Source: a bacterium (GTDB taxonomy: Bacteria; Bacillota; Clostridia; Lachnospirales; Lachnospiraceae). From it: a stretch of 64,000 nucleotides of DNA. Numbering within the stretch: the stretch's first letter is position 1; every line of letters begins with the position of its first letter. Below, one piece after another: positions 23,539-64,000 of the stretch. The DNA lies in the NCBI GenBank assembly GCA_037301995.1, contig JAXVOW010000302.1, positions 8-64,007 on the forward strand, read 5' to 3'. Below the pieces are notes generated by a model that was not told the origin of the DNA, did no database searches, and worked only from the letters and a program-made list of their open reading frames with translations. The position numbers were made by a program, and so were the translations under genes.

Positions 23539-23630
23539 AATATAATCTCTCCTTATATTTATATATAAAAATCTATCCAACTTATTTATTTTATCACACA
23601 TTTTCCATTGTTTCTACCCCGTAATGCAAC

Positions 23631-23659
23631 AATAGGGGACTGCGAAACAGTCCCCTATT
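23631..23659 (-). terminator. Stem-loop terminator after rplQ
   Basis: 12-bp stem aataggggactg/cagtcccctatt with loop cgaaa. The U-tract is weak. Confidence 0.5.
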
Positions 23660-23679
23660 AGATAATCCTACATTATACC

Positions 23680-24216
23680 TTATACTAACTCGATGATAAC
23701 TTCCATAGCTGCATCACCCTTACGTGGTCCAATCTTAATGATTCTTGTGTAACCACCGTTACGACCTGCATACTTAGGACCATACTCATTGAATAACTTC
23801 TCCGTTAAATCAACCTTCTTGGTTCCTCTCTTTTTGCCTGCAGCTTCAGCCGGAACTTCAACAACCGGATAAAGAACCTTTAACATCTGTCTTCTTGCAT
23901 GCAACTTAGATGGCTGATCCTTCTTTACAGTCTTTTCAACCTCATCATAAACAGTAACCTTCTTACCGTCTACAACCTCTTTAATTCTCTTGCCATCTTT
24001 GTCCTTCTTAGCAACCTTGGCAGTTACAGTAACCTCATCAAAGTTATCCTTTTCCTTAACTGCCATTGTGATTAAGCTCTCAGCAATCTTGCGGATTTCC
24101 TTTGCTCTTGCCTCTGTTGTCTTAATCTTACCGTTGTATAATAACTGTGTAACCTGATTACGAAGTAATGCTTTTCTTGCCGCCTGTTTCTTTCCAAGCT
24201 TTCTATACATTGCCAT
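23680..24216 (-). CDS. rplQ: 50S ribosomal protein L17 (extended, 178 aa)
   Basis: [20 protein letters not shown]...[11 protein letters not shown]...LHARRQ...[25 protein letters not shown]. Confidence 0.95.
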
Positions 24217-24270
24217 GATGTATTTCCTCCTTCACTTTGCTTACTATTATTCGGCTTAAGTGTTTCCTTT

Positions 24271-25227
24271 TTACTCTTCTCCAGTGTTCAGAGATAAATT
24301 AAGCTCCTTTAATTTGTTCAGGACTTCCTCTAATGACTTCCGTCCCAAATTACGAACCTTCATCATATCCTCTGGAGTCTTATTTGTTAACTCTTCTACC
24401 GTATTAATACCTGCTCTCTTTAAGCAGTTAAAGGAACGAACAGATAACTCTAATTCATCAATGTTCATTTCCAATACTTTTTCTTTCTCATTATCTTCTT
24501 TCTCTACCATTACTTCTGCCGATTTCGCATTTTCTGATAAATCAATAAATAAATTGAGATGTTCACTTAATACCTTTGCTGCTAAGCTTACTGCCTCATC
24601 TGGCGCCAATGTACCATTGGTATACACATCTAAGGTAAGCTTATCATAATCGGTAATCTGACCAACACGCGTATTCTCAACTGTAAGATTGACGCGCTCT
24701 ACTGGTGTATAAATAGAATCTACTGCAATCACGTCAATTGAAGTATCTTCCTTCTTATTCTTATCAGAACCAACATACCCTCTACCCTTGGTAATGGTAA
24801 GTTCCATGTCAAATCTCGCCTCTGAACCACTTAAAGTAGCAATCACTAAGTCTGGATTCAAAATTTCGATATCGCTATCAACATGAATATCTGCTGCGGT
24901 AACTACACCTTCGCCAACATACTCAATATAAGCCTGCTTTGGCTCATTTGAACTGCTGTTATTCTTAATGGCTAATTCTTTGATGTTCATGATAATCTCA
25001 GTCACATCTTCCTTTACACCTGGTATAGAGCTAAACTCATGTAAAACGCCTTTGATTTTTACATAGCTTACGGCTGAACCTGGTAATGATGATAACATAA
25101 TTCTTCTCAAAGAATTACCAAGTGTTGTACCATAGCCTCTCTCTAAAGGTTCTACTACAAATTTACCGTATCTGTTGTCTTCTGAAATCTCTGCGATTTC
25201 AATTCTTGGTTTTTCGAATTCAAACAC
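24271..25227 (-). CDS. rpoA: DNA-directed RNA polymerase alpha subunit (GTG start)
   Basis: [11 protein letters not shown]...[23 protein letters not shown]...[15 protein letters not shown]. Confidence 0.97.
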
Positions 25228-25282
25228 GCTAGGAACCTCCTTAAATATTTATAACTATCACAGTGCAAGCTCGCTTTCACTA

Positions 25283-25375
25283 CGTTTCAGCCCGCTCGGG
25301 CGAAACGCCCTATACATAATAGTCAAGAACAGCCTGCACGCAGGTAAACCTGCGCAGTCCGTTCTGACTATTATG
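25283..25375 (-). ncRNA. Two strong stem-loops in the rpsD-rpoA spacer
   Basis: First stem-loop 25283-25307: cgtttc(a)gcccg-ct-cgggc-gaaacg. Second 25315-25375: arms cataatagtcaagaac/gttctgactattatg enclosing ctgcacgcagg..cctgcgcag. Confidence 0.5.
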
Positions 25376-25400
25376 TGCACTGCTAAATCGTTATCGAACA

Positions 25401-25994
25401 TTACTTAGAATATAACTCGACAATAAGTGTTTCATTTACAGGAACATCAATCTGCTCTCTTAATGGTAACTCTGTAACGGTACCACAAAGATTTTCCTGG
25501 TCAGCTTCCAGCCATGCCGGAACCAGTCTTCCACCAGTCACTTCTAAAATGTCCTTATATCTCTGAAGAGACTTGCTCTTCTCTCTGATTTCAATCTTAT
25601 CTCCAGCTTTTACTCTGTAGGATGGAATGTTAACACACTTACCGTTAACTAATACATGCTTGTGGTCAACAATCTGTCTTGCTTCCTTACGTGTTCTGGC
25701 CAAACCTAACCGGAATACAACATTGTCCAATCTGCACTCTAAAAGAATCATTAAGTTTGGACCTGTCAAACCTTTCATTCTCTCTGCTGTTGCATAGAGA
25801 TTACGGAAAGGCTTCTCCAATACGCCATAGATGAATTTTGCTTTCTGCTTCTCACGAAGCTGTAAGCCGTACTCACTCATCTTTCTATTTGCTCTGACTA
25901 ATTTTCTATTTGATTTTTTATCAATTCCGAGATACATTGGCTCCATGCCTAAAGATCTGCATCTCTTAAGAACTGGGGTTCTATCTACTGCCAT
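25401..25994 (-). CDS. rpsD: 30S ribosomal protein S4
   Basis: [16 protein letters not shown]...[20 protein letters not shown]. Confidence 0.97.
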
Positions 25995-26010
25995 CTAACT
26001 GTACCTCCTA

Positions 26011-26403
26011 TTACACTCTTCTACGTTTTGGTGGACGGCAACCATTGTGTGGAACTGGTGTCACGTCACGAATACTAAGTACCTCAAGACCTGCTGCCTG
26101 AAGCGCACGAATTGCAGCTTCACGACCAGAACCTGGTCCCTTAACCATAACGTCAACCTTCTTTAAACCGTGAATAAGAGCTGCCTTCGTTGCAGTCTCT
26201 GCTGCCATCTGTGCTGCATAAGGAGTAGACTTTTTAGAGCCTTTAAATCCTAATTCGCCAGCACTTGCCCATGAAAGTGCATTACCTTCATTATCGGTTA
26301 ATGTAACAATTGTATTATTAAAAGATGACTGAATATGTGCCTGTCCGTGTTCTACATTCTTCTTAACACGCTTCTTCGTCACTTTTTTTGTAACTTTAGC
26401 CAT
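26011..26403 (-). CDS. rpsK: 30S ribosomal protein S11
   Basis: [39 protein letters not shown]. Confidence 0.97.
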
Positions 26404-26436
26404 TAAACTTAACCTCCTGTTAAATATAAACGAATC

Positions 26437-26805
26437 TTATTTCTTCTTATTTGCAACGGTTCTCTTTGGACCCTTACGAGTTCTTGCATTTGTCTTGGTC
26501 TTCTGACCACGAACTGGCAAGCCCTTTCTATGACGGATTCCCCGATAACATCCAATTTCCTGTAAACGCTTGATATTCATAGCGATTTCTCTACGTAAAT
26601 CACCCTCTACTATCTGTGTCTCGTTGATAATCTCACTGATTCTCTTAACCTCTTCATCAGTCAAATCACGAACACGGGTATCAGGATTAACATTTGCTTC
26701 TTTTAAAATACGCTGAGATGATGGAAGTCCAATACCATAAATATAGGTAAGACCGATCTCAACACGCTTCTCTCTTGGTAAATCTACACCTGAAATACGA
26801 GCCAT
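26437..26805 (-). CDS. rpsM: 30S ribosomal protein S13
   Basis: [26 protein letters not shown]. Confidence 0.97.
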
Positions 26806-27082
26806 TGTGACTGTGCACCTCCATAATTAATACTTTTTCTTGAATGTCTGGATTCCCTAACCATCAACGTATCCGTATGTATCACATACGGGTGAAATGC
26901 ATACGCCTTTGTTTCAAATCCATTCTATTGATATGTTGCATAGGCTAATGACAACCCATGCTACAGCCGCTTTCTAAAATCATCTTCTATATCAATAATG
27001 ATAATATAGAAGGAACTTCACACTGGGAATACAGTGCTACTTTGGTTAACAAACTTCGAGGGTCTTTAAGATGGGCTATCAT

Positions 27083-27196
27083 CTAACCTTGTCTCTGTTT
27101 GTGTTTAGGGTTCTCACAGATAACTCTGATACTACCTTTTCTTTTAATGACTTTGCACTTATCGCAAATTGGTTTTACGGATGCTCTAACCTTCAT
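27083..27196 (-). CDS. rpmJ: 50S ribosomal protein L36 (37 aa, below the ORF-track size cutoff)
   Basis: Manual translation gives [37 protein letters not shown] with a TAG stop. RBS aaaggagagag lies upstream. Confidence 0.93.
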
Positions 27197-27299
27197 TAAA
27201 ATCTCTCTCCTTTCAAAACGGTGTCATCAGACGCGAATACACCTGCCGTGTATTCCCTGCCCGCCGACCTTTTCTGTAAAAAGTCCGCTACGAATATCT

Positions 27300-27328
27300 A
27301 TTCTATCATCTTAATTTGTTCAATGCAA
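27300..27328 (-). promoter_or_regulatory. Internal sigma-A promoter for rpmJ-rpsM-rpsK-rpsD-rpoA-rplQ
   Basis: On the minus strand, TTGCAT (27328-27323), a 17-nt spacer, then TAGAAT (27305-27300) with a TGn extended -10. An A-rich UP-like tract lies upstream. The leader hairpin gaatacac/gtgtattc is at 27235-27255. Confidence 0.5.
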
Positions 27329-27388
27329 GCAAAATTTTCTTATATTTCCAAGTTTTTTTCTGTTTTTCCAATTTTTTTTAAGAAAATT

Positions 27389-27607
27389 CTACTTTTCTCT
27401 CCATTTAATCCTTCCTTTTGTCAAATCATACGGAGATAATTCCAACGTAACCTTATCACCTGGCAAAATTTTAATATAATTCATTCTCAACTTTCCACTA
27501 ATATGTGCCAATACTTCGTGTCCATTTTCCAGCTCTACCTTAAACATGGCATTCGGCAATTTCTCAATTACAGTTCCCTCAATTTCAATCACATCTGCTT
27601 TAGACAT
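27389..27607 (-). CDS. infA: Translation initiation factor IF-1
   Basis: ORF 27389..27649. The start was moved to [41 protein letters not shown] (ATG at 27607, RBS aggagg). Confidence 0.96.
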
Positions 27608-27675
27608 ATATAAATCCTCCTGTTTTAAATTCCATTCGACTCTATGCATCCTGCACTTTTCTGTTCATTTCCATA

Positions 27676-28443
27676 CTATAGTGCAATTCCGGGAGCCTGA
27701 GACAGAATTTCCGGCTCTCCCTCTGTAATCAGTATTGTATTCTCATAATGTGCAGATGGTAAACCATCCTCTGTCACAACAGTCCAGTCATCATCTTCCC
27801 AGTATACATCATATTCACCCAGGTTAATCATTGGTTCCACTGCAATCGTCATACCAGGACGAAGCTTTGCGCCACGTCTCAAGCCTGCAAAGTTTGGAAC
27901 CTCCGGGTCCTCATGCAGCTTAGAGCCAACTCCATGACCTATCAAATCTCTGACCACGGAATACCCATGGGCCTCTGCATGCTTCTGGACGGCTCTTCCA
28001 ATATCTATTACATGATTACCTGCAACAGCCTCTTTAATACCCTCAAAAAAACATTCTCTTGTTATCTTTACCAGTTCTTTTATCTCATCGGATACTGCCG
28101 GCATAATCAAAGTTCTTGCTGCATCAGAATGATATCCCTTATATATTACACCTGCATCCAGGCTGACAATATCATCCTCCTGGATAATGCGGTGTTCATT
28201 TGGAATACCATGCACCACTTCCTCATTGATTGACACACAGATAGATGCCGGGTATCCGTTGTAATTCAGGAAAGACGGGATACATCCATAGCTTCTGATA
28301 ATCTCTTCACCTATCCGGTCTACCTCCAGTGTAGACATTCCTGGCTTTACACGCTTCGCCAATTCATCATGGGTGATGGCGAGAATTCTTCCCGCCTCAC
28401 GCATGAGTTCAATTTCTGCTTTCGATTTAATTGAAACTGCCAT
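27676..28443 (-). CDS. map: Type I methionine aminopeptidase
   Basis: IKSKAEIELMREAGRI..., metal ligands in DAGVIYKGYHSD and GHGVG. Confidence 0.95.
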   Translation of the reverse strand: MAVSIKSKAEIELMREAGRILAITHDELAKRVKPGMSTLEVDRIGEEIIRSYGCIPSFLNYNGYPASICVSINEEVVHGIPNEHRIIQEDDIVSLDAGVIYKGYHSDAARTLIMPAVSDEIKELVKITRECFFEGIKEAVAGNHVIDIGRAVQKHAEAHGYSVVRDLIGHGVGSKLHEDPEVPNFAGLRRGAKLRPGMTIAVEPMINLGEYDVYWEDDDWTVVTEDGLPSAHYENTILITEGEPEILSQAPGIAL

Positions 28444-28445
28444 TT

Positions 28446-29090
28446 TTATTCACCTAAAATTTTAACAATTGCCTCAAAGACATCCTTCATATCAACTGTT
28501 CCATCCACCTCACGGGTAATGCCCTTGTTGGTATAATAATCAATTAAAGGCTGTGTCTGCTCATGATAAACAGCAAGTCTGTTTTTAACAGTCTCCGGCT
28601 TATCATCATCACGAATAATCAAATCTGCTCCACAGGTATCACATTTACCCTCTACCTTGGTTGGGCTGTATACGATATGATATGTTGCTCCACAGCCTAC
28701 ACATGCACGTCTACCACCCATTCTGTTAATAATATTTTCATCCGGTACTTCCACATTGATGGCATAATCGATGCTCTCACCAATTGCAGTTAATGCCTTG
28801 TCAAGCGCCTCTGCCTGAGGAATTGTTCTTGGGAATCCATCTAACACATATCCCTTTTCACAATCAGGCTCTTTAAAACGGTCAATTACTAAATCAACTA
28901 CCAGCTCATCCGGCACTAAAAGACCTTTATCCATATATTCCTTTGCCTTTGCTCCTAATTCTGTACCATTCTTAATGTTGGCACGGAAAATGTCCCCAGT
29001 AGAAATATGCGGAATTCCATACTTTGCGGCAATCATTTTTGCCTGTGTACCTTTTCCTGCTCCAGGCGCACCTAACATAATAATCTTCAT
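28446..29090 (-). CDS. adk: Adenylate kinase (zinc-lid type)
   Basis: [17 protein letters not shown]; lid CVGCGATYH...CDTCG. Confidence 0.97.
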
Positions 29091-29353
29091 AACCTATCCT
29101 CCATAAATTTTTCGCTTCATCTCGGTGTTCGTTTCACCTACATCTCTCCGGCTTCCTCTATGAATGAACGCACCTCGATTCCGTTTCACTTCATCTCGGT
29201 GTTCGTTTCACTCACATAGCTTTCTTAGAATGCCTGTAACTGCAAGCAGTTACAGCATTCCTTCGAAAGCTGCGTTCATTCAATGCGACAAACCGCAGGG
29301 ATACAGCGTACTGTTTTCCTACGGTTTTATATAAGTTCATAATAGTAAAAATA
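29091..29353 (-). repeat. Structured 263-nt secY-adk spacer with direct and inverted repeats
   Basis: Identical 23-nt direct repeat cttcatctcggtgttcgtttcac at 29115-29137 and 29189-29211. A 12-nt inverted repeat tgaatgaacgca/tgcgttcattca (29161-29172, 29271-29282) encloses the hairpin at 29228-29260. Confidence 0.7.
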
Positions 29354-30667
29354 TTAGTCATTTAAGAATCCTGAATAATTACGAACCAGCATCTGGGACT
29401 CTAACTGCTTCATTGTCTCAAGAATAACACCTACAATGATGATTAGAGATGTTCCACCAAAGGATACATCTGCCTTAAACATTCCGTTAAAGAAAATCGG
29501 AATCAAAGCTACAATTAACAGTCCTGCCACACCAATTAACACAATATAATTCAGAATCTTATTCAAGTAATCCTGAGTTGGTTTTCCAGGCCGGATACCC
29601 GGAATAAAACCGCCGCTCTTCTTCATATTATTTGCAACTTCCATCGGATTAAATGTAATAGAAGTATAAAAATATGCAAAAATGATATTTAATAGAATAT
29701 ATATAATAAGTCCAACGGATGCCCATGGATATTCCGGATTAAACCAGTAATTCTGATTTAACCCCTGCAAAATCTTCTGCCATGTTGTTCCTGGAGTTAT
29801 ATTAAATAAATTAATAATAATAGCCGGAACGGACAGCAGTGATGATGCAAAGATAATCGGGATAACTCCGGCAGTATTCACCTTAAGCGGAATATAGCTT
29901 GACTGTCCTCCAGTCATTTTTCTTCCCTGAACCTTTTTAGAATACTGAACAGGAATCCTTCTCTCTGCATCCTGTAAAATAATTACAAGAATAGTCGTTC
30001 CAATAATAACTGCCGCAATCACACAAATAGCAATTACAGCCTGAACAATATCCTTGTTTTTTACAAACATTTCATACAGATTAGCAAAGTCAGATGGCAT
30101 ACGGGACACAATATTAATTAACAATACAATTGAAATACCATTTCCGATACCCTTATCTGAAATTCTTTCACCTAACCACATAACGATACAGCTTCCTGCT
30201 GTTAATGTTACAATAATTGTTATAATGGTAAAAATGTTGGCATCACCCAATGCTCCCTGTCTGGAAAATCCAATTGCCAAACCTGCACTTTCAACAACAG
30301 CCAGACCAACAGACACATATCTTGTAATCTGGTTCATTTTTTTCTTGCCATCTTCACCATCCCGGTGCATTTCCTCTAAAGCAGGAATCGCAATGGTTAA
30401 AAGCTGCATAATAATGGATGCTGTAATATAAGGCGTTACACCCAATGCAAATACTGACATGGATAAAAATGACCCACCCGTGAATGAATCAATAAAGCTA
30501 TAGGAAGCTCCCACTACACTCTCCAGGAATTCCTTCACCTGGGACACGTCAATGCCAGGGATTGGCAACTGACTTCCCAGACGAACTATTACTAAAATCC
30601 AGAATGTATATATGATTCTCTTCCTTACCTGTTCAATTTTGAACGCATTAACTAAGGTTTTGAACAT
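29354..30667 (-). CDS. secY: Preprotein translocase subunit SecY
   Basis: 437-aa polytopic protein: ALGVTPYITASIIMQLL...GGTSLIIIVGV. Confidence 0.97.
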   Translation of the reverse strand: MFKTLVNAFKIEQVRKRIIYTFWILVIVRLGSQLPIPGIDVSQVKEFLESVVGASYSFIDSFTGGSFLSMSVFALGVTPYITASIIMQLLTIAIPALEEMHRDGEDGKKKMNQITRYVSVGLAVVESAGLAIGFSRQGALGDANIFTIITIIVTLTAGSCIVMWLGERISDKGIGNGISIVLLINIVSRMPSDFANLYEMFVKNKDIVQAVIAICVIAAVIIGTTILVIILQDAERRIPVQYSKKVQGRKMTGGQSSYIPLKVNTAGVIPIIFASSLLSVPAIIINLFNITPGTTWQKILQGLNQNYWFNPEYPWASVGLIIYILLNIIFAYFYTSITFNPMEVANNMKKSGGFIPGIRPGKPTQDYLNKILNYIVLIGVAGLLIVALIPIFFNGMFKADVSFGGTSLIIIVGVILETMKQLESQMLVRNYSGFLND

Positions 30668-32248: not shown

Positions 32249-32788
32249 TTATTTCTTACCAGTCTTACCAACCTTGCGTCTAATCACTTCATCAGCATAC
32301 TTAATACCTTTACCCTTATAAGGCTCCGGTGCTCTCTTTTCTCTGATTTCAGCAGCATATTGGCCAACTTTTTCTTTATCAATACCTGAAACGGTGATTG
32401 TGTTACCGTCTACCTTAGACTCTAATCCTTCCGGATCCTCCATCTCTACTGGATGAGAGTAGCCTAAGTTGAGAACTAACTTCTTACCCTGCTTAGCAGC
32501 TCTGTAACCAACACCATTTACCTCTAACACTTTTGTATAACCTTCAGTTACACCGATTACCATGTTATTAATCAGGGTTCTTGTAAGACCATGTAAAGAT
32601 TTCATCTTCTTCAAATCGTTAGGTCTTGTTACAATAACCTGGTCACCCTCAAGCTTAATGTCCATTTCCGCAGGTAAAACTCTGGTCAGTGTACCCTTTG
32701 GTCCTTTTACAGTCACTTGATTATTTTCTGCAATATCAACAGTTACGCCTGCTGGTACAGCGATAGGCATTCTTCCGATACGTGACAT
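32249..32788 (-). CDS. rplF: 50S ribosomal protein L6
   Basis: [17 protein letters not shown]...GYSHPV. Confidence 0.97.
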
Positions 32789-33249
32789 GCCGTTACCTCC
32801 TTAATTATATAGGACTAATTATACAGTCCGGTTATTTGTTTATCTATCTTACTTAATTGTTTTATACTATCTTTCGCGTGATTTATAACATTTTTGTGAT
32901 AAATGTTTATCACCACGCTTTCGCATAATTCACTACATCCACTTTACTAAATTCTACCTTTCTACTAAGCTCACCTCTGGTTCGCTAAGTATTCAGGCAT
33001 CATTAAGTATCGGGATGGATTTCTCTGCCTCGTCGACTACTAAGTTCGCCTTCGGCTCACTAAGAGCGTCGACAGGGCTACGACTAAACTCAGGCTGCGC
33101 TTATCAGCTTGCCTTCGTTAAGTTCTCTGCCTTCTCCACTCCACTACCATTCGGTCTTCACCTTCAGCTCGCCCTCATGAAGTGTCGGGATGGACTTTCG
33201 CACTAACCTCAAACTGCGCCTTCAGCTTGTTTTCGTTAAGTGCTCAATG
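32789..33249 (-). repeat. 461-nt rpsH-rplF spacer made of repeat modules paralogous to the rplW-rplB spacer
   Basis: The 43-nt unit at 33195-33237 matches 38491-38533 at 41/43. cattaagtatcgggatgg (33001-33018) is identical to 38472-38489. The 41-nt module at 32914-32954 matches 38410-38450 at 35/41. Degenerate tandem copies lie in between. Confidence 0.8.
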
Positions 33250-33651
33250 TCACCATACAAACGCCAGTACTTCGCCGCCAACCTGAGCTTCACGAGCCTG
33301 CTTGTCAGTTAATACACCCTTGTTTGTAGAAATGATAGCAACACCTAAGCCGCCTAATACCTTAGGAAGCTCATCCTTGCCAGCATATACACGAAGACCT
33401 GGCTTAGAGATTCTCTTAATACCAGTAATAATCTTCTCATTTTTATCCTTACCATACTTTAAGGTAATACGGATTGTCTTAAATTTACCTTCTTCAATTA
33501 TATCAACAGCTTTGACATAACCCTCTTCTAAAAGAATGTTAGCAATTGCTTCCTTCATCTTTGAAGCAGGAATATCAACTGTATCATGTTTAGCAGTATT
33601 CGCATTGCGAATTCTAGTAAGCATATCTGCGATTGGATCTGTCATTGTCAT
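33250..33651 (-). CDS. rpsH: 30S ribosomal protein S8
   Basis: [17 protein letters not shown]. The second ATG at 33645 has better RBS spacing. Confidence 0.96.
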
Positions 33652-33669
33652 TTACCTCCTTCAAAAATT

Positions 33670-33855
33670 TTACCAGCTTGCTTTCTTAACGCCTGGGATT
33701 TCACCCTTGTATGCTAACTCACGGAAGCAGATTCTGCAGATTCCGTATTTCTTTAACACTGAATGTGGACGTCCACAAACTTTACAACGAGTATATTCTC
33801 TTGTAGAGAATTTCTGTTTACGCTGCTGTTTAACAACCATTGCTTTCTTAGCCAT
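33670..33855 (-). CDS. rpsN: 30S ribosomal protein S14 type Z (zinc-binding)
   Basis: 61 aa with [20 protein letters not shown]. Confidence 0.96.
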
Positions 33856-33869
33856 GAATCTTCCTCCTA

Positions 33870-34409
33870 TTATTTCTTAAACGGCATACCAAATAAGGTT
33901 AATAACTCACGAGCTTCCTCGTCAGTCTTAGCGGTAGTAACGAAAATAACATCCATACCTCTAACCTTATCTACCTTATCATACTCGATTTCAGGGAAAA
34001 TCAACTGCTCCTTGATACCTAAAGCATAGTTACCTCTGCCATCAAATGCGTTCGGATTGATACCTCTAAAGTCACGGACACGTGGTAATGCAAGATTGAT
34101 TAAACGGTCTGCAAACTCATACATTCTCTCGCCTCTTAAGGTTACCTTACATCCGATTGGCATTCCTTCTCTCAACTTGAAGTTCGCGATAGACTTTCTG
34201 GCACGGGTAACAACTGCCTTCTGACCAGTAATTGTCTCTAAATCCTGAACTGCTGAATCTAAAAGCTTATGGTTTTCCTTCGCTTCACCAACACCCATGT
34301 TGATTACAATTTTCTCAAGCTTTGGAACTTCCATAACATTTTTATAACCAAATTTCTTAGTCATAGCGTCTTTGATTTCGCTATTGTACTGTTCTTTTAA
34401 TCTACTCAA
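33870..34409 (-). CDS. rplE: 50S ribosomal protein L5
   Basis: [12 protein letters not shown]...NMGVGEA...[28 protein letters not shown]. Confidence 0.97.
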
Positions 34410-34432
34410 CTTCTGTGGCCTCCTCTCTTAAA

Positions 34433-34750
34433 TTAGTCAATCTTTTCTAACTTACCGTTCACTTTAGCCACACGAACCTTGTCTTTCTTCTCGCCCTGGA
34501 AACCGATTCTAACTGGTTTTCCCTTGTGAACATACATAACGTTAGATATATCAATAGGTGCTTCCTTCTCAATGATACCACCCTGCTGGTTTGTCATACT
34601 TGGTTTAGAGTGTTTAGAAACCATGTTGACTCCCTCAACTAATACTTTATGGTTTTTGGTATCCACTGATAAAACCTTACCGGATTTACCCTTGTCTTTA
34701 CCAGTGATAACCTGAACTAAGTCATCTTTTTTAATCTTACTAGTTGCCAT
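34433..34750 (-). CDS. rplX: 50S ribosomal protein L24
   Basis: IKKDDLVQVITGKDKGKSGKVL. Confidence 0.96.
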   Translation of the reverse strand: MATSKIKKDDLVQVITGKDKGKSGKVLSVDTKNHKVLVEGVNMVSKHSKPSMTNQQGGIIEKEAPIDISNVMYVHKGKPVRIGFQGEKKDKVRVAKVNGKLEKID

Positions 34751-34762
34751 CCTGACACCTCC

Positions 34763-35131
34763 CTATAAAACTTCTGGTGCTAATGAAACGATCTTCATGA
34801 ATTTCTTATCTCTAAGCTCTCTTGCTACAGGTCCGAAAATACGGGTTCCTCTTGGATTCATATCATCCTTGATGATAACAGCAGCGTTCTCATCAAACTT
34901 GATGTAAGAACCGTCTTTACGGCGTGCGCCTTTCTTTGTACGAACAACCACAGCCTTTACAACGTCACCCTTCTTTACAACGCCACCTGGTGTTGCATCT
35001 TTAACAGAGGCAACGATGATATCACCGATGTTCGCATATCTTCTGGTTGAACCGCCTAATACTCTGATGCAAAGTAACTCTTTTGCTCCGGTATTGTCAG
35101 CAACTTTAAGTCTTGTTTCCTGTTGAACCAT
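34763..35131 (-). CDS. rplN: 50S ribosomal protein L14
   Basis: [28 protein letters not shown]. Confidence 0.97.
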
Positions 35132-35148
35132 TGTCCTTGCCTCCTTGA

Positions 35149-35403
35149 TTATTTAGCTTTCTCTACGATTTCTACAAGTCTCCATCTCTTGTCCTTAGAT
35201 AAAGGTCTTGTCTCCATAACTCTTACTCTATCGCCGATATGACATTCATTGTTCTCATCATGAGCCTTTAATTTATAAGTTCTCTTCACAATCTTTCCAT
35301 AAAGAGGATGCTTAACATTATCTACGATTGAAACAACAATTGTCTTATCCATCTTATCACTTGTTACTAATCCTACACGTGTTTTTCTTAGATTTCTTTC
35401 CAT
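35149..35403 (-). CDS. rpsQ: 30S ribosomal protein S17
   Basis: [19 protein letters not shown]...[29 protein letters not shown]. Confidence 0.97.
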
Positions 35404-35427
35404 TGTCTTTGCCTCCTTCCAAGATAA

Positions 35428-35631
35428 TTAAGCATTAGCCTTTTCTGTCATAATAGACTGAATTCTGGCAATATTTCTTCTTACCTCTTTAATTCTGCTT
35501 GTATTCTCTAACTGGTTAGTTGCATTCTGGAATCTTAAATTGAATAATTCCTTCTTAGCAGCTACTAACTCTGCGTTTAACTCTTCCACATTCTTAGCCT
35601 TTAACTCTTCACGATATTCCTTAGTTTTCAC
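35428..35631 (-). CDS. rpmC: 50S ribosomal protein L29 (GTG start)
   Basis: ORF 35428..35640. The GTG at 35631 ([10 protein letters not shown]) lies 9 nt after gaaggag. [17 protein letters not shown]. Confidence 0.93.
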
Positions 35632-36058
35632 TGCCTGCACCTCCTTCTAAATCTTCACGGGATACAATCTTGCACTTAACAGGTAACTTATGAGTTGCAA
35701 GTCTTAAAGCTTCCTTAGCAGTCTCTTCCGGTACACCTGCAATCTCAAACATTACACGTCCAGGCTTAACTACTGCTACCCAGCCTTCTACATTACCTTT
35801 ACCTTTACCCATACGAACACCGATAGGCTTAGATGTATAAGGCTTATCAGGGAAAATCTTAATCCAGACCTTACCAGTACGTTTTACATAACGGGTCATA
35901 GCGACACGGGCTGCCTCAATCTGGTTTGATTTAATCCAAGCTGGCTCCATTGCAACAATACCATATTCACCATTACTGATTTTGTTACCTCTGGTAGCCT
36001 TACCAGCCATGGAACCTCTGAACTGCTTTCTATGTTTTGTTCTCTTAGGCATTAACAT
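35621..36058 (-). CDS. rplP: 50S ribosomal protein L16
   Basis: [15 protein letters not shown]. Confidence 0.97.
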
Positions 36059-36723
36059 TATTTATCGCTCCCTTCCTTGTTGTTCTTAGTTGGAAGTACT
36101 TCACCATGATAAATCCAGGTCTTAACACCAACCTTACCATAGGTTGTGTCAGCCTCAGCAAAACCATAGTCGATATCTGCACGAAGTGTCTGAAGAGGAA
36201 TGGTTCCCTCGCTGTAGAACTCTGTACGAGCCATATCAGCACCACCTAAACGTCCAGAAACAGAAGTCTTAATTCCTAATGCACCGGTCTTCATTGTTCT
36301 GCCCATGCAGGACTTCATTGCACGACGGAAAGAGATACGATTCTCTAACTGTGCTGCGATATTCTCAGCAACTAACTGAGCGTCTGCATCCGGTTTCTTA
36401 ACTTCCTTAACGTCAACCATCAACTTCTTATCTGTTAACTTGGCAACCTCTTTCTTGAGTGCCTCGATTTCTGCGCCACCCTTACCAATTACAACACCAG
36501 GCTTTGCTGTGTAAATGATAACTTTCAGTCTGTCAGATGCTCTCTCGATTTCGATTTTAGAAACCTGAGCACTGTAAAGTCTCTTCTTAAGGAAAGTACG
36601 AATTTCATTATCTTCTACTAAGTTGTTTGCAAATTCGCCATCCTTTGTATCAGCATACCATCTGGAATCCCAATCCTTGATGATACCGACTCTCAAACCA
36701 TGAGGATTTACTTTCTGTCCCAT
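36058..36723 (-). CDS. rpsC: 30S ribosomal protein S3
   Basis: [24 protein letters not shown]...[10 protein letters not shown]. Confidence 0.97.
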
Positions 36724-36734
36724 TATTTGCCTCC

Positions 36735-37130
36735 TTATCTTTCATCAAGCACGATTGTAATATGGCTTGTTCTCTTCTCAATTCTATAAGCTCTGCCCTG
36801 TGCTCTTGGTTGAATTCTCTTCATTGTTGGACCCTTATTTGCATAACACTCTGCAATATAAAGGTTCTCTGTCTTGTAATTTTTGTCTGGATAGTTATTC
36901 TCAGCATTTGCAATAGCTGACTTTAACAACTTCTCTATTACACTTGAAGCATATCTTGGATTGTAAGCTAAGATAGCAAGTGCAGTCTGTACATCCTTAC
37001 CTCTGATGGCATCTAAAACGAAACATGCTTTTGTTACAGAGACTCTAGCATAAGAAATCTTAGCAGATGGTCTTGTATCTTTATTTGCATTTCTCTCTCT
37101 TTTAATCTGGGATCTATGTCCTTTTGCCAT
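36735..37130 (-). CDS. rplV: 50S ribosomal protein L22
   Basis: [20 protein letters not shown]...[29 protein letters not shown]. Confidence 0.96.
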
Positions 37131-37155
37131 GGATGAATCCTCCTTTCAAATCTGA

Positions 37156-37437
37156 TTATCTAAGTTTTGATTTCTTTTCGTCCTTGCCATGTCCTCTGTA
37201 TGTTCTGGTTGCAACAAACTCGCCGAGCTTGTGTCCTACCATGTCCTCAGTAACATATACAGGCACATGTCTTCTTCCGTCATAAACTGCAATTGTATGT
37301 CCTACGAAGCTAGGAAAGATAGTAGAACGACGTGACCAGGTCTTAATAACCTGCTTGTCATTACTAGCATTCAAAGCATCGACTTTCTTAAGCAAATGTT
37401 CATCTGCAAATGGTCCTTTTTTAAGTGAACGAGCCAT
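37156..37437 (-). CDS. rpsS: 30S ribosomal protein S19
   Basis: [19 protein letters not shown]...[23 protein letters not shown]. Confidence 0.97.
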
Positions 37438-37455
37438 AGGTCAAACCTCCTTATA

Positions 37456-38298
37456 TTATTTAATACTCTTACCATCTCTGGTTCTAACGATCATCTTATT
37501 TGACTGCTTATTCTTCTTACGAGTCTTAAGTCCAAGTGCCGGCTTGCCCCATGGTGTACATGGACCCGGACGGCCGATACTGGTCTTACCTTCACCACCA
37601 CCGTGTGGATGGTCGTTAGGGTTCATTACGGAACCACGAACTGTAGGTCTGATACCCATATGACGCTTACGTCCAGCCTTACCAATATTAACAAGGCCAT
37701 GTTCAATGTTACCAACCTGACCAATTGTTGCACGGGCAACGATTGGAACCATTCTCATCTCGCCTGATGGCAGACGCAGTGTTGCATACTTGCCTTCCTT
37801 AGCCATAAGCTGTGCAGAGTTACCGGCAGAACGAACCAGCTGTCCACCCTTTCCCGGATATAACTCAATGTTGTGTACCTCAGTACCAACCGGAATTGCC
37901 TCTAACGGCAGGCAGTTACCAACCTTAATCTCTGCGTTGGCACCATTCATAACCTTATCTCCAACCTGTAAACCTACAGGAGCTAAGATATAAGCCTTCT
38001 CACCATCAACATAGTTGATTAATGCGATGTTTGCTGTTCTGTTTGGATCATATTCAATCGAAACAACAGTTGCCGGAATATCGTCTTTTCTTCTCTTGAA
38101 ATCGATAATTCTATATTTTCTTCTGGAACCACCACCATGGTGTCTTACTGTAATCTTTCCCTGATTGTTACGACCAGCGTTCTTCTTTAAAGAAGTTGTT
38201 AAGGATTTTTCAGGTGTGCTCTTTGTAATCACATCGAAATCCAAACCAGTCATATTTCTTCTGGAAGGTGTATATGGGTTGTATGTCTTAATTCCCAT
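37456..38298 (-). CDS. rplB: 50S ribosomal protein L2
   Basis: ORF 37456..38322. The start was moved to [14 protein letters not shown] (ATG at 38298, RBS aaaggagaaag). [16 protein letters not shown]...[13 protein letters not shown]. Confidence 0.97.
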
Positions 38299-38546
38299 TT
38301 TCTTTCTCCTTTCAAATTGCATTTATTATCACGCTTGCTTGCGTATGAATTGTTATTAAGCTTTCGCACTAATCTCAAACTGCGCCTTTGGCTTGTTTTC
38401 ACTGCTCATCACGCTTTCGTTTCATTCACAGCATCCACTCTACTAAATTCGAACTTCGCTGTGCTCGTTCTCATTAAGTATCGGGATGGGCTTTCGCACT
38501 AACCTCAAACTGCGCCTTCGGCTTGTTTTCGCTAAGTGCTTAATGC
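38299..38546 (-). repeat. 248-nt rplW-rplB spacer carrying two copies of a 43-nt unit plus modules shared with the rpsH-rplF spacer
   Basis: ctttcgcactaa(t/c)ctcaaactgcgcctt(t/c)ggcttgttttc(a/g)ct at 38361-38403 and 38491-38533 (40/43). The terminal module ends 1 nt from the rplW stop codon. Confidence 0.8.
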
Positions 38547-38846
38547 CTATAGTCCTTCAAAGATTTCAATATCTTTGCTGTCCGCTGTCAGCTGAACGAT
38601 TGCCTTCTTAGACTTAGCAGTTCTTCCGTAAACCATTCCACGTCTCTTTTTCTTACCATCAAGATTCATTGTGTTTACCTTGGCAACCTTTGTTCCCTCG
38701 AACATCTTCTCAACAGCATCCTTAATCATAGTCTTATTTGCCTCCGGATGAACCTGAAATGTGTATTTCTTATCAGCCATTGCATCCATAGACTTCTCAG
38801 TAATGATAGGTTTCTGAATTACGTCATAATATTTGATATCTGCCAT
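38547..38846 (-). CDS. rplW: 50S ribosomal protein L23
   Basis: [26 protein letters not shown]. Confidence 0.96.
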
Positions 38847-40592: not shown

Positions 40593-40839
40593 AAAAAAAG
40601 CCGCCTCCTTTTCGCACTTATTTAATAGGTACGACAAGTGGTGACTGTACACTCTCCCGTGTGTGTCATATTTTGAAGCATTTTACAATATAACTTTCAC
40701 ACGTCATCTCCCCTTATGGGATGGTTATTCGTACAGTGACTTGCCGTCAGTTTCTTAACTTGACATTCGCTCCACGGAAAACCTGCCACAGCGGGCAGCA
40801 ACCTCACGCTTCATAGCTATCAATGTCACAGCAAGTGCT

Positions 40840-59310: not shown

Positions 59311-59340
59311 CTTCGTTCTCCTTTCGTTATATTTGTTTTT

Positions 59341-59548
59341 AGGTAATTGCGAAACTCATTATTTTAAAATGCGAGTTGTGCAAATGTAACAAATTTATGT
59401 TTGTAGGACATTTGAGAACGTCAGTGCTTAGCGAGGTACTTTCGAGCTTAGCACTGTTGCGTTCTCAACCAAGTGCAAACGGTCCGAAAAACATATTTGT
59501 TACATTTGTACAACGCAGGTTCTCAAAAAATCAGTTTCGCAATTACCT
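59341..59548. mobile_element. MITE-like 208-bp palindromic element with 16-bp perfect terminal inverted repeats and a 12-bp flanking direct repeat
   Basis: TIRs aggtaattgcgaaact (59341-59356) and agtttcgcaattacct (59533-59548). Flanking direct repeat atatttgttttt at 59329-59340 and 59549-59560. Internal arms also pair (gttgtgcaaatgtaacaaat/atttgttacatttgtacaac). Confidence 0.7.
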
Positions 59549-60569
59549 ATATTTGTTTTTGCCAGAATGCAATTGCCTCGTTAATCCAGCCTTCTGCCAC
59601 CGTACCGGTTCCCAGTCCAAAGCCATGTCCCAGCCCCGGATAAGAATGAAATTCTGTGTCGATTCCCAATGCACTCATACCATCCAGCCGCCGCTTCATG
59701 GTACGCCAGCTTGCAATTCCATCATTTTCTCCAACTGTCACAAATGTCGCAGGGTCATTTTCGCTGTATTCAGTTAAGCCGGTATACTGCATGATGACTG
59801 CAGCAGGCTGTGGAAGCGCCTCGGCACCAAAGGCTGCGGTTCCATAGGAGCCAAGCCATGCCGCCATTCTCGCACCGGCACTTCCTCCCCACAGAGAATA
59901 GCCGTCGGTGTTTACCTCCAATTCTCCGGCATGTTCAAAAATATATTGAATGGCACGGGCCAGATCTTCACAGGCTGTCTGCGCACCTGGCCGGTAAATC
60001 AAGGTAAATGCGTTATATCCTTGCTTGGACAGCTCCAAAGCATGAGGAAAGCTGTCCTGCATGGCTCCCACATAGGCAAACGCCCCACCGGCATTGCAAA
60101 TGGCAAATCTTTCGCCAGGGTTCCCCTTGAAAAAGAACAAGCCTGTATCTTCTTTTGCCGGGTCAGCCGACTTTTTTTCCTCTGTATAAATGTCATAAAA
60201 AATGACGTCACCAGAGGCGGCATGCTCCCTCATATAATTTGCAATTTCCACCGTCTCCTCCGAATCTATGTTGTTATACCAGGTCAGCTGCAGCTCCCCC
60301 AGCGTGTTCCCGCTGTAATAACCGGTGTCTACCGGAAAAATCAGCCTGCCATAATCTCCAAAAACAGGATCCTGAATGACATCGGATATGGCTGTGTCAA
60401 CGGTATACGAATTACGCATACCTGCATTGACTGTATTATCCTCCTCAGCTTCTGTCCGGATAGTGTTAGATGGCATATTCTGCTTTGTTGCACCTGTATT
60501 TCCACAAGCACTGAGTATCATCATAAACAGGACTGCCAGGATTCCCATTGCAATTACCCGTTTCAACAT
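59547..60569 (-). CDS. Alpha/beta hydrolase lipoprotein (esterase/lipase fold)
   Basis: ORF 59547..60587. The start was moved to MLKRVIAMGILAVLFMMILSACG (ATG at 60569, RBS aggaggg). ICNAGGAF...LWGGSAGA (GxSxG). The TAG stop lies inside the MITE terminal repeat. Confidence 0.82.
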   Translation of the reverse strand: MLKRVIAMGILAVLFMMILSACGNTGATKQNMPSNTIRTEAEEDNTVNAGMRNSYTVDTAISDVIQDPVFGDYGRLIFPVDTGYYSGNTLGELQLTWYNNIDSEETVEIANYMREHAASGDVIFYDIYTEEKKSADPAKEDTGLFFFKGNPGERFAICNAGGAFAYVGAMQDSFPHALELSKQGYNAFTLIYRPGAQTACEDLARAIQYIFEHAGELEVNTDGYSLWGGSAGARMAAWLGSYGTAAFGAEALPQPAAVIMQYTGLTEYSENDPATFVTVGENDGIASWRTMKRRLDGMSALGIDTEFHSYPGLGHGFGLGTGTVAEGWINEAIAFWQKQI

Positions 60570-60621
60570 ATTTATCCCTCCTGCCATGCAACTCTCTTAC
60601 TTCATTTGCTACCTACAGTAT

Positions 60622-61651: not shown

Positions 61652-61929
61652 CTAAAGCGCTGCACCTATTGTAGCATATCCACTCAGATACGTATACATC
61701 ACCGGATTTGCATTCGCATACAGATACTTATGCAGGCTTACCGGGTCATAAATACTTCCCTGATAGCTGTCCATGCTGATAAAGGTTCCGGTAAACGGAT
61801 TCATATACCTTGCACGAAGGTAATATAATCCTGTATTCGCATTGTACTGTTCCCCAGTGTAGAGGAACTCGTTTTTGGTATCGGCTTCCTTCTCTAATAA
61901 GCTGCCATAGGCATCATAGCTGTAGCGGT
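61652..61929 (-). pseudogene. Orphan RHS core-end fragment (no start codon, truncated tip)
   Basis: 61691-61929 duplicates 62878-63116 (239 nt, about 6 mismatches). It encodes ..YSYDAYGSLLEKE..YYLRARYMNPFTGTFISMDSYQGSIYDPVSLHKYLYANANPVMYT, then YLSGYATIGAAL and a stop at 61652. Confidence 0.8.
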
Positions 61930-62238: not shown

Positions 62239-64000
62239 TCAATAAAAGTGTGTATCAAAATATTTTTTTAATTGATTGTAGTCCGATTTAGGACCAGTAT
62301 TTTTTGGATCATATTCCCCATATTTTTCTAAGACTCTTTTCGCAGCATCCTTACCCGACTCGTTCTTATACGGTTTTTCTCCCTTAAATCTATCTGCTAT
62401 ATCATCTTTATCTTTTCCTTTTTTAGGCTTTTTTTTCGTTTTGTACTCTTTGTCTTCATTCTGACTTTCTCCTTCTTTTTCTTTTGGAGAATTTTTTCCT
62501 TTATTTTTGCCTTTGCTTTTATCATTATTCTCAGCTTCATAAATTGCCATCCTTATCTGTTCAGCAATTGTTTCACTTGCGATACCAGCCTCATTACAGA
62601 TAATTTCTATATTATCCAGTGCATACTGCAAAATCTCAACTGCTACATCACATGCATCTATAGAATACCCCTCATTTAATGCATCATCTATAACAAGCGA
62701 CAACATAACCGTTGCTGAAAGATATGATACAGCTTCTACCGCCTTAAGTGACCATAACCGATTCAGGAGCTGCATTCCAATATTAAACATAATGGCTTCA
62801 TTCTGTGCCTCTTGTACCTCTGAACTGGTCATTACACCCATTCCTGCTACAAGAACTCCAACATACCCGCTCGGGTCCGTATACATCACCGGATTTGCAT
62901 TCGCATACAGATACTTATGCAGGCTTACCGGGTCATAAATACTTCCCTGATAGCTGTCCATGCTGATAAAGGTTCCGGTAAACGGATTCATATACCTTGC
63001 ACGAAGGTAATATAATCCTGTATTCGCATTGTACTGTTCCCCGGTGTAGAGGAACTCGTTTTCGGTATCGCCTTCCTTCTCTAATAAACTGCCGTAAGCA
63101 TCATAGCTGTAGCGGTCTGTGATTCGTCCCGCTTCGTTTGTCAGAAGCCTTGTGCTTCCATGTCCGTCATACAGATAATACCATACTTCTCCATCCTTTT
63201 CCATGGAAAGAAGCTCATCACCCCTGGTATAATAAGCGGTTTCTTTTCCCTTTTCATCCGTCTCTGCCGCCACCATGGTAAGGTCTGCACTGGTATCATT
63301 GACATAAAAGGTAGTGTCACTTTCGTTTATGGTCTTTGACAGACGGTTTCCGGCATAGTCATAGGTATAGGATTCAACCGTTACACTGCTGTCCTGCTGG
63401 ACGATTGCTTTTGTCAGATGGTTTTCCTTATCATACGTATAGTCTGCTGTCATACTGCCGGTCTGCTTTACAAGGTTTCCGTTGGCATCATAGCTGTAGA
63501 CAATATTTCCTTCCGGAGAAACTTCTGTAATCAACTGGTTTAATGCATTGTAGGTATAAATGGTTGTTCCTTCGATAACTTTGATTTCTTCCGAATCCAC
63601 ATCTGCCAGCACAGAGATATCACCTTTAACGGAAGTCTCTTTGGAAATACGGTTGCTTGCTGCATCATATGTAAATTCGTTAGTTAATCGGTTCCCATCC
63701 CTCTCTATGGTCTCTTTTACAAGACGGTTTAACCTGTCATATTTATAGGTGGTTTCCGTCTCCACACCGCTGTTTACCTCTGTGATGGTAAGACGCTCTC
63801 CTGCTTTGCCCAGCCCATAGCTGTACCGGGAAAGCTGTACACCATCTGCATTGGTCACACATTCTTCCTTTAACCGCTGGCAGGCATCATAGGTATAGGT
63901 GGCCACGTTGCCGTTTGGATAGCGGACTGCACTACGGTTTCCTAATTCGTCATACTCATATACCGTTGCTCTGCCGTTCCGGTCAATGACCCGGGTAACA
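62239..64000 (-). CDS. RHS/YD-repeat polymorphic toxin; N-terminus runs off the right edge (the track ORF 62239..63906 starts at an internal GTG)
   Basis: The reading frame stays open from 63906 to nt 64000 (..RVIDRNGRATVYEYDELGNRSAVRYPNGNVATYTYDA). It carries many YD repeats and the RHS core end YYLRARYMNPFTG...NPVMYTDPSGY, then a ~210-aa C-terminal tip. Confidence 0.88.
   Translation of the reverse strand, partial: VTRVIDRNGRATVYEYDELGNRSAVRYPNGNVATYTYDACQRLKEECVTNADGVQLSRYSYGLGKAGERLTITEVNSGVETETTYKYDRLNRLVKETIERDGNRLTNEFTYDAASNRISKETSVKGDISVLADVDSEEIKVIEGTTIYTYNALNQLITEVSPEGNIVYSYDANGNLVKQTGSMTADYTYDKENHLTKAIVQQDSSVTVESYTYDYAGNRLSKTINESDTTFYVNDTSADLTMVAAETDEKGKETAYYTRGDELLSMEKDGEVWYYLYDGHGSTRLLTNEAGRITDRYSYDAYGSLLEKEGDTENEFLYTGEQYNANTGLYYLRARYMNPFTGTFISMDSYQGSIYDPVSLHKYLYANANPVMYTDPSGYVGVLVAGMGVMTSSEVQEAQNEAIMFNIGMQLLNRLWSLKAVEAVSYLSATVMLSLVIDDALNEGYSIDACDVAVEILQYALDNIEIICNEAGIASETIAEQIRMAIYEAENNDKSKGKNKGKNSPKEKEGESQNEDKEYKTKKKPKKGKDKDDIADRFKGEKPYKNESGKDAAKRVLEKYGEYDPKNTGPKSDYNQLKKYFDTHFY

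Follow-up and report, generated by a model that had tools for sequence, protein, structure and literature searches.

A stop-codon-abutting hairpin repeat, apparently uncatalogued, in ribosomal-protein operons of gut Lachnospiraceae

The S10-spc-alpha ribosomal-protein cluster is encoded on the minus strand of the window, by which we mean the whole 64,000-nt stretch of Lachnospiraceae DNA that was analysed. Two spacers of this cluster are long. The gap between rplW (38547-38846, minus strand) and rplB (37456-38298, minus strand) is 248 nt and the gap between rpsH and rplF is 461 nt, while the remaining junctions from rplC to secY are -20 to 28 nt each. An earlier reading, made from the letters of the DNA only, had singled out the rplW-rplB junction as oversized within a tight operon and as non-coding. 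Both points hold, and the mRNA strand of the spacer contains 5, 8 and 8 stop codons in its three frames. The sole Rfam match at the gathering threshold in the whole window is an S10-Clostridia leader (40741-40822). What, then, occupies the space between rplW and rplB? The sequence-only reading offered two answers, namely insertion at a specific site or a functional RNA attached to the cistron.

The rplW-rplB insertion and the second array

Alleles of the spacer were obtained by an exact-protein look-up of the window L23, which returned contigs with identical L23 and flanks that are 95-100% identical DNA. The rplW-rplB spacer in these alleles measures 60 (empty), 88 (remnant), 191, 248 or 256 nt. 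The last 52 nt (38299-38350, minus strand; attcatacgc...aaaggagaaagaaa), which carry the Shine-Dalgarno sequence, are invariant in all alleles including the empty one and are therefore the native rplB leader. By the same comparison, a six-allele alignment of contigs with identical L23, the insertion in the window is 38351-38546 (minus strand), a 196-nt array of three hairpins. The empty 60-nt allele has 8 nt (aatgtaag) between a TAA stop codon and the native leader. The 88-nt allele retains only the flanks of P1, the basal helix of the first hairpin (GGCAUUAAAGCC), and the 191-nt allele, a diverged form with two hairpins, has the compensatory pairs GAACU/AGUUC and AUAC/GUAU and a P1 of AAC/GUU with a TAA stop. 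Comparison of the empty L061 with the filled alleles shows neither a target duplication nor terminal inverted repeats at rplW-rplB. Empty, remnant and filled alleles behind an identical L23 directly support site-specific insertion, and the element is dispensable at the rplW-rplB junction.

Hairpins were described with R1, a covariance model built from 43 aligned copies of the best-conserved hairpin. At rplW, the stop codon UAG (38547-38549, minus strand) contributes its G, together with 38545-38546, to the GGC strand of P1, which by sequence and predicted fold pairs with GCC at 38489-38491. Hairpin 1 (type A; 38489-38547 including P1, minus strand) has an R1 match at 38494-38541 (75.9 bits, E 2.5e-18), and its covariation-supported core is GA-GCACU UAGCGA AAAC-AA-GCC(GAA)GGC-GCA-GUUU GAGGUU AGUGC-GA, with the two strands of the internal loop set off by spaces. 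Hairpin 2 (type B; 38432-38488, minus strand) has an R1 match at 38439-38482 (30.6 bits, E 5.6e-6), a closing stem of CAUCC/GGAUG and the same internal loop, here UAAUGA/GAAUUU; as a single fold it reaches -18.3 kcal/mol (z -3.9). Hairpin 3 (38364-38407, minus strand; R1 match of 49.0 bits with three unpaired P2 positions) is a direct copy of the hairpin 1 core minus the 5' strand of P2. It is also the second of the two 43-nt units that had been pointed out at 38361-38403 and 38491-38533, which are indeed identical at 40/43 positions. A 41-nt version of this unit has three copies in the window, compared with 0.00 expected by chance.

A second array of the same hairpin family occupies the rpsH-rplF spacer (32789-33249, minus strand; fold z -6.2). 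R1 hairpins are present there at 33198-33245 (73.6 bits), 33140-33186 (19.2 bits), 33080-33127 (57.0 bits), 33040-33064 (a weak match of 12.4 bits) and 32961-32994 (21.7 bits), each on the minus strand. The R1 hairpins in both spacers of the window, three and five, are all in mRNA sense. The order of modules is also common to the two spacers, as the sequence-only reading had claimed. The 41-nt module (38410-38450) has a counterpart at 32914-32954 with 35/41 identical positions, the 18-nt block (38472-38489) an exact copy at 33001-33018, and the terminal module a counterpart at 33225-33249 with 23/25 identical positions. The element abuts the upstream stop codon in both places, at 0 nt from that of rplW and 0-1 nt from that of rpsH. 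The described purine richness of the unit in mRNA sense amounts to a mild excess (64.5% purine, compared with 58.5% for the operon). Of the two hairpin motifs proposed earlier, gccgaaggc is an apical hairpin, whereas GCGAAAG is not a GNRA-like hairpin and instead spans the internal loop or the basal-helix junction in the covariation-supported fold.

No sense-strand terminator-like site was found in either spacer and promoter-like sites in the spacers are at chance level only; for these reasons the array is probably co-transcribed with the operon. An intrinsic terminator was rejected for both spacers, since neither has a G+C-rich hairpin with a U tract on the transcribed strand. The Shine-Dalgarno sequence of rplB is predicted to be mostly unpaired (probability of pairing 0.19) and that of rplF is likewise predicted to be free (about 0.2). 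Sequestration of the Shine-Dalgarno sequence as a general coupling switch was rejected as well, because the predicted pairing is inconsistent (0.2-0.75) and the sequence is predicted free in the window. Some relatives have a CCUUCC...AGGAGG hairpin at the Shine-Dalgarno sequence.

Several other spacers and repeats of the window were noted. The secY-adk spacer (29091-29353, 263 nt) contains another purine-rich unit, of 34 nt and in two copies (29110-29143 and 29184-29217, 91% identical; GUGAAACGAACACCGAGAUGAAGYGAAA in mRNA sense), for which no match with R1 or Rfam was found, and this gap is long in related genomes too (62-326 nt). The long rpmJ-rpsM (26806-27082, 277 nt) and infA-rpmJ (27197-27388, 192 nt) spacers have no R1 match. 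An S4-Clostridia leader (RF03140) lies directly upstream of rpsM in a relative (L016:347-433, 34.7 bits), and this leader has no match at E<=1 in the window. Among the rpsM-rpsK loci of many Lachnospiraceae (L001-L052), a conserved AAAGUAGGUUAGUUUAAAUG replaces the canonical Shine-Dalgarno sequence at the start of rpsK; the window has AGGAGG before rpsK and a rpsM-rpsK spacer of only 33 nt. Lastly, a 255-nt direct repeat (61675-61929 and 62862-63116, 96% identical, 1187-nt spacing) may be a duplicated gene segment.

Pairing and conservation of the hairpin

From outside to inside, the unit consists of a closing stem, GA opposite GA, a stem NACU/AGUN, a 6x6 internal loop, an inner stem and a variable tip. 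The internal loop is symmetric (5'-UARYGA/5'-GARNUU) with tandem G-A pairs and is conserved across units, and the closing stem is variable and covarying. In P1 of the first hairpin, the upstream stop codon or the last codons pair with the sequence just 3' of the hairpin. P1 covaries between loci and alleles. For example, it is GGC/GCC at rplW, GAC/GUC at rpsH, AAAGU/ACUUU at rpsM and GGAAU/AUUCC at rpoA, and in allele L062 it is AAC/GUU with a TAA stop. The mean duplex energy of P1 is -5.8 kcal/mol in cis, compared with -3.5 +/- 0.3 kcal/mol in trans with shuffled partners (0/500).

R1 identified 146 hairpins in the loci described below and in the window. In the alignment of these matches, whose pairing and covariation counts are biased in favour of R1, the model used to fit the alignment, 95.1% of cells are paired, compared with 84.5% in shuffles and 6-41% in slid controls; double changes occur in 12 of the 14 pairs, and the observed values were reached by 0/500 shuffles. 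G-U and U-G combinations number 42 and A-C and C-A combinations number 8. Compensatory changes are also plain in the raw sequences, for example AAGC/GCUU in one copy and AAAC/GUUU in another, and apical stems of GCC/GGC, GCU/AGC or GCAC/GUGC. The sequence-only reading had named a lack of covariation as a mark of duplication junk, and covariation is instead strong.

Between species, the identity of the hairpin is 0.84-0.90 and that of four-fold sites in the flanking genes is 0.48-0.63; part of this excess arises because 20 nt are fixed by the search pattern, by which most hairpins in the conservation test were chosen. Between the window and L046, hairpin identity is 0.90 and four-fold-site identity is 0.38, and the 28 hairpin positions outside the pattern keep an identity of about 0.8. 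Conservation is highest in the loop nucleotides, at 0.94-1.0 in 69 hairpins that were not chosen by the search pattern. As judged from these sequence comparisons, the structure of the hairpin and the sequence of its loop are selected on the mRNA-sense strand. The functional-RNA reading is supported as far as structure goes, by covariation, by the G-U bias, by the orientation in sense and by conservation that exceeds that of synonymous sites. It is not supported as to function, and the element is dispensable at rplW-rplB.

Known motifs with partial likeness were considered and set aside. By inspection the unit is not a K-turn; tandem G-A pairs are present, but the 6x6 loop is symmetric and the bulges at the P1-P2 junction are variable, 1-4 nt on either strand. 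Readings as loop E, group II intron domain V or an rRNA mimic were also unsupported by inspection. The integron attC site is an imperfect hairpin right after the cassette ORF, with R''/R' core sites RYYYAAC...GTTRRRY. Its placement next to the stop codon is alike, but these core sites are absent from the consensus and the flanking genes here are core ribosomal-protein genes. Published 5S rRNA expansion segments were checked and are unrelated to the element.

Distribution, turnover and dispersed relatives

When 185,579 species, each represented by a single genome, were scanned with an exact pattern, 58 loci emerged, of which about 53 belong to Lachnospiraceae, in about 50 genomes. The carriers include Mediterraneibacter, Dorea, Blautia, Roseburia, Faecalicatena, Bariatricus, Parablautia and Marvinbryantia, and among them are the cultured strains Bariatricus massiliensis AT12, Faecalicatena orotica DSM 1287 and Roseburia zhanii BX1005. 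A few matches in Proteobacteria and Acidobacteriota are without the remaining hairpin and look like chance. One locus, L012 (JAMPFJ010000010.1), is labelled as a Bacteroidales MAG; it is probably mis-binned because its ribosomal proteins are 92-99% identical to those of the Lachnospiraceae-type window. The possibility raised earlier, that the units are confined to two spacers, is contradicted by this distribution, which covers at least 10 kinds of junction.

In about 40 of 53 loci (about 75%), the hairpin begins 0-8 nt downstream of a translation gene's stop codon. The junctions concerned are rpsM>rpsK (14), rpsH>rplF (7), rpsN>rpsH (4), rplK>rplA (4), rpsG>fusA (3), rplW>rplB (3), rpoA>rplQ (2), after rpmJ (2), ssb>rpsR (1) and after map (1). 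Other loci are after a LysR gene, between oadB and oadA, after a GGGtGRT-family gene and upstream of trpE, in addition to dispersed copies in a Parasporobacterium MAG. At annotated operon junctions, 82 of 86 R1 matches are in sense, and only eight junction types are used. Occupancy was 7/11 for rpsN>rpsH and 8/11 for rpsH>rplF, and 0 of 11-14 for rplF>rplR, rplR>rpsE, rpsE>rpmD and rpmD>rplO. Three of the four antisense matches at annotated junctions are in one map-infA spacer (L019:2177-2408), in tandem, 98 nt apart and opposite to the operon strand. Near-consensus copies number 1-6 per representative genome, as counted by the exact-pattern scan, with diverged copies outside the genome-wide count.

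The arrays change rapidly between close relatives. The rpsH-rplF array of L018, which belongs to the same species as the window, differs by whole-module indels, and in close relatives this array ranges from 216 to 474 nt. Tandem duplication occurs inside arrays, with a spacing of 130 nt in the window and three 129-nt units in L012. Where occupied and empty sites were compared at other junctions, the element was always between the stop codon and the Shine-Dalgarno sequence. The nearest neighbour of a hairpin was at the same junction in another genome in 19 cases, in the same genome at another junction in 4 and elsewhere in 11. With nearest neighbours this mixed, the family is not explained by vertical descent alone or by spread within genomes alone. 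A nearby transposase was looked for and not found; the 1.2-kb infA-rpmJ gap of L011 instead holds the gene for a 352-aa acyltransferase-like membrane protein (L011:2717-3775).

Related hairpins are also found in dispersed palindromes. In the window, a 210-nt near-perfect palindrome (59340-59549, no strand assigned; z -11.7) ends in the terminal inverted repeats TAGGTAATTGCGAAACT and has a target duplication of about 10 nt, which reads AAAACAAATA in mRNA sense. It sits between two minus-strand ORFs, and its first TAG is the stop codon of the upstream ORF (59547-60587). An exact-protein look-up of its 346-aa neighbour returned nothing on record. The palindrome tip (59422-59456, plus strand) carries the loop motif of the array hairpins, GUGCU UAGCGA .. 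GAGCUU AGCAC, antisense to both neighbouring genes. Three matches to the pattern CTTAGCGAN{4,30}GAGNTTAG lie in the window, compared with 0.00 expected. A metagenome scan found 15 loci with this tip, in at least 7 different flanks and all gene orientations, with target duplications of 10-13 nt, and in some of them the tip is embedded in unrelated outer stems. Since its tip is carried in this many contexts, the palindrome appears MITE-like. A putative autonomous parent element would carry the ends TAGGYAATTGCGAAACT. In the Parasporobacterium MAG, type A and type B hairpins lie within a palindromic element of 130-290 nt, five copies of which are found in unrelated places and both orientations, and their outer stems covary between copies.

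No match to the element was found in viral contigs by the scan or in plasmids and phages by BLAST. Rfam gave no match at E<=10 over 32700-38700, and at E<=1 the hairpins were unmatched in five other loci and in 23600-29400. No paper describing the element came up in literature searches by topic, motif name or sequence string. These results agree with the earlier statement that no described ribosomal-protein leader or REP family has such a layout.

Known repeats, competing explanations and meaning

The closest likeness is to REP/BIME elements. [quoted passage not shown] The hairpins here are short imperfect palindromes found in spacers only, in extragenic transcribed DNA, with supported folds. 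[quoted passage not shown] However, the GTAG/CTAC foot of REP/BIME is absent here, where the consensus foot is GA-NCACU...AGUGN-GA. The hairpin is also longer (about 50-60 nt) and has conserved non-Watson-Crick internal loops, its units face one way instead of alternating, and the family is concentrated in ribosomal-protein operons. In addition, its copy number of 1-6 near-consensus copies per representative genome appears low for REPs or typical MITEs; REPs typically number in the hundreds per genome and come with an associated RAYT transposase.

Other known systems share some of these features. The BOX elements of Streptococcus pneumoniae and the ERIC/IRU elements of Enterobacteria are modular with a fixed module order and are co-transcribed, with stable RNA folds and compensatory changes. 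Our element resembles them in that conserved modules in a fixed order enclose a changing number of internal ones, and in an RNA fold with compensatory changes between copies. BOX and ERIC, however, are found in either orientation and are not known to be linked to stop codons or ribosomal-protein operons. The likeness to MITEs (short, non-coding and dispersed, with terminal inverted repeats) concerns only the 59340-59549 palindrome and the Parasporobacterium copies. These forms are dispersed in either orientation as MITEs are, but the ribosomal-protein arrays, with their sense bias and few junctions, are not, and terminal inverted repeats together with a target duplication are seen only in the related 210-nt form. 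Also, the dispersed forms are most conserved at the palindrome tip and not at the ends, and their outer stems covary in place of fixed transposase sites. The ribosomal-protein autoregulatory leaders (S10-Clostridia, RF03136, and S4-Clostridia, RF03140) are likewise structured sense RNAs of Clostridia ribosomal-protein operons with covariation. However, such leaders have one fixed position and mimic one rRNA site, while the hairpin here occurs in tandem arrays at many junctions. Because of these many positions and its absence in some strains, the element is not a ribosomal-protein leader. It is apparently an uncatalogued repeat of gut Lachnospiraceae with sense-restricted, stop-abutting hairpins concentrated in translation operons.

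The reading that we prefer, held with roughly even confidence, is a REP/BOX-like, sense-transcribed hairpin repeat under RNA-level selection that is related to the MITE-like dispersed copies and probably forms an RNA structure at cistron boundaries. The low copy number speaks against it, as do the lack of a target duplication and terminal inverted repeats at rplW-rplB and of a transposase nearby. Arrays would expand, contract and exchange fast, even within species, while selection on the sense RNA would keep the core hairpin. In the operon mRNA the array is predicted to fold into a compact purine-rich structure, in which the first helix would clamp the rplW stop codon and the downstream Shine-Dalgarno sequence would stay free. 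By analogy with REPs close to stop codons, the array may block 3'-to-5' exonucleases, be recognised by a nuclease or binding protein, or both. Since it is 0-1 nt from the stop codon, it could also slow termination at rplW and uncouple the translation of rplB from that of rplW. The conserved non-Watson-Crick loop argues for a specific partner.

Conservation of the loop and the bias towards few ribosomal-protein sites would also fit a dedicated cis-regulatory RNA module, in which the hairpin binds a trans-acting protein at the cistron boundaries of many ribosomal-protein mRNAs and gives regulon-wide post-transcriptional control. A regulator, a nuclease or an antitermination factor could fill this role. 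This explanation is possible but doubtful. It would account for unpaired loop nucleotides that are nearly invariant in non-ascertained hairpins, core identity far above synonymous sites across genera, the three-quarters of unbiased-scan loci in translation operons, reuse of the same few junctions nearly always in sense, a P1 tailored to each stop codon and the low copy number per genome. Empty and remnant alleles within one species are difficult to reconcile with it, as are changes in the number and order of hairpins between near-identical strains, the presence of the same core in dispersed palindromes in unrelated contexts and in antisense, and the sites after the LysR gene, between oadB and oadA and upstream of trpE. 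In addition, no candidate protein was found. A further proposal is about as doubtful. The hairpin, with its CUUANNGA / GANNUUAG loop and tandem G-A pairs, may be the site of a putative trans-acting factor at the cistron boundaries of ribosomal-protein and other translation operons in Lachnospiraceae. The system would be a post-transcriptional module, variable in copy number and partly mobile, with a stop-codon clamp that would tune termination, re-initiation or segmental mRNA stability across the ribosomal regulon.

The same turnover suits a purely selfish DNA element, either a MITE or a REP-like single-stranded DNA hairpin moved by a transposase, with no RNA role; sense orientation and adjacency to stop codons would then merely reflect the insertions that an essential operon tolerates. 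Presence/absence polymorphism agrees with this, as do MITE-like relatives that have terminal inverted repeats and target duplications and lie in all orientations, and a short junction offers few insertion points that spare the Shine-Dalgarno sequence besides the one just after the stop codon. We consider it unlikely, however, since the predominance of G-U over A-C (42:8) points to folding as sense RNA, the ribosomal-protein insertions are without terminal inverted repeats or target duplication, no plasmid or phage copies were found, the basal helix is adapted to each CDS end, and genera with saturated synonymous sites still keep the element at the same junction. Junk from neutral slippage or duplication, limited to one genome, could draw on the tandem duplication that does happen inside arrays, but it is extremely improbable and already refuted by the presence of the hairpin in about 50 genomes of several genera, by compensatory changes and by conservation above the neutral expectation.

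Few bacterial loci are as conserved and as tightly packed as ribosomal-protein operons, and a structured RNA repeat has colonised specific boundaries within them in abundant human-gut Lachnospiraceae. Its core is conserved above synonymous sites, yet filled and empty alleles coexist within species. The hairpin is a new, well-supported RNA structure family for Rfam-type catalogues. Also, because the spacers are hypervariable between strains with near-identical flanking genes, they could serve as strain-typing markers. The filled and empty alleles provide a natural, isogenic-like contrast for the effect of a stop-codon hairpin on termination, translational coupling and mRNA decay in an essential operon.
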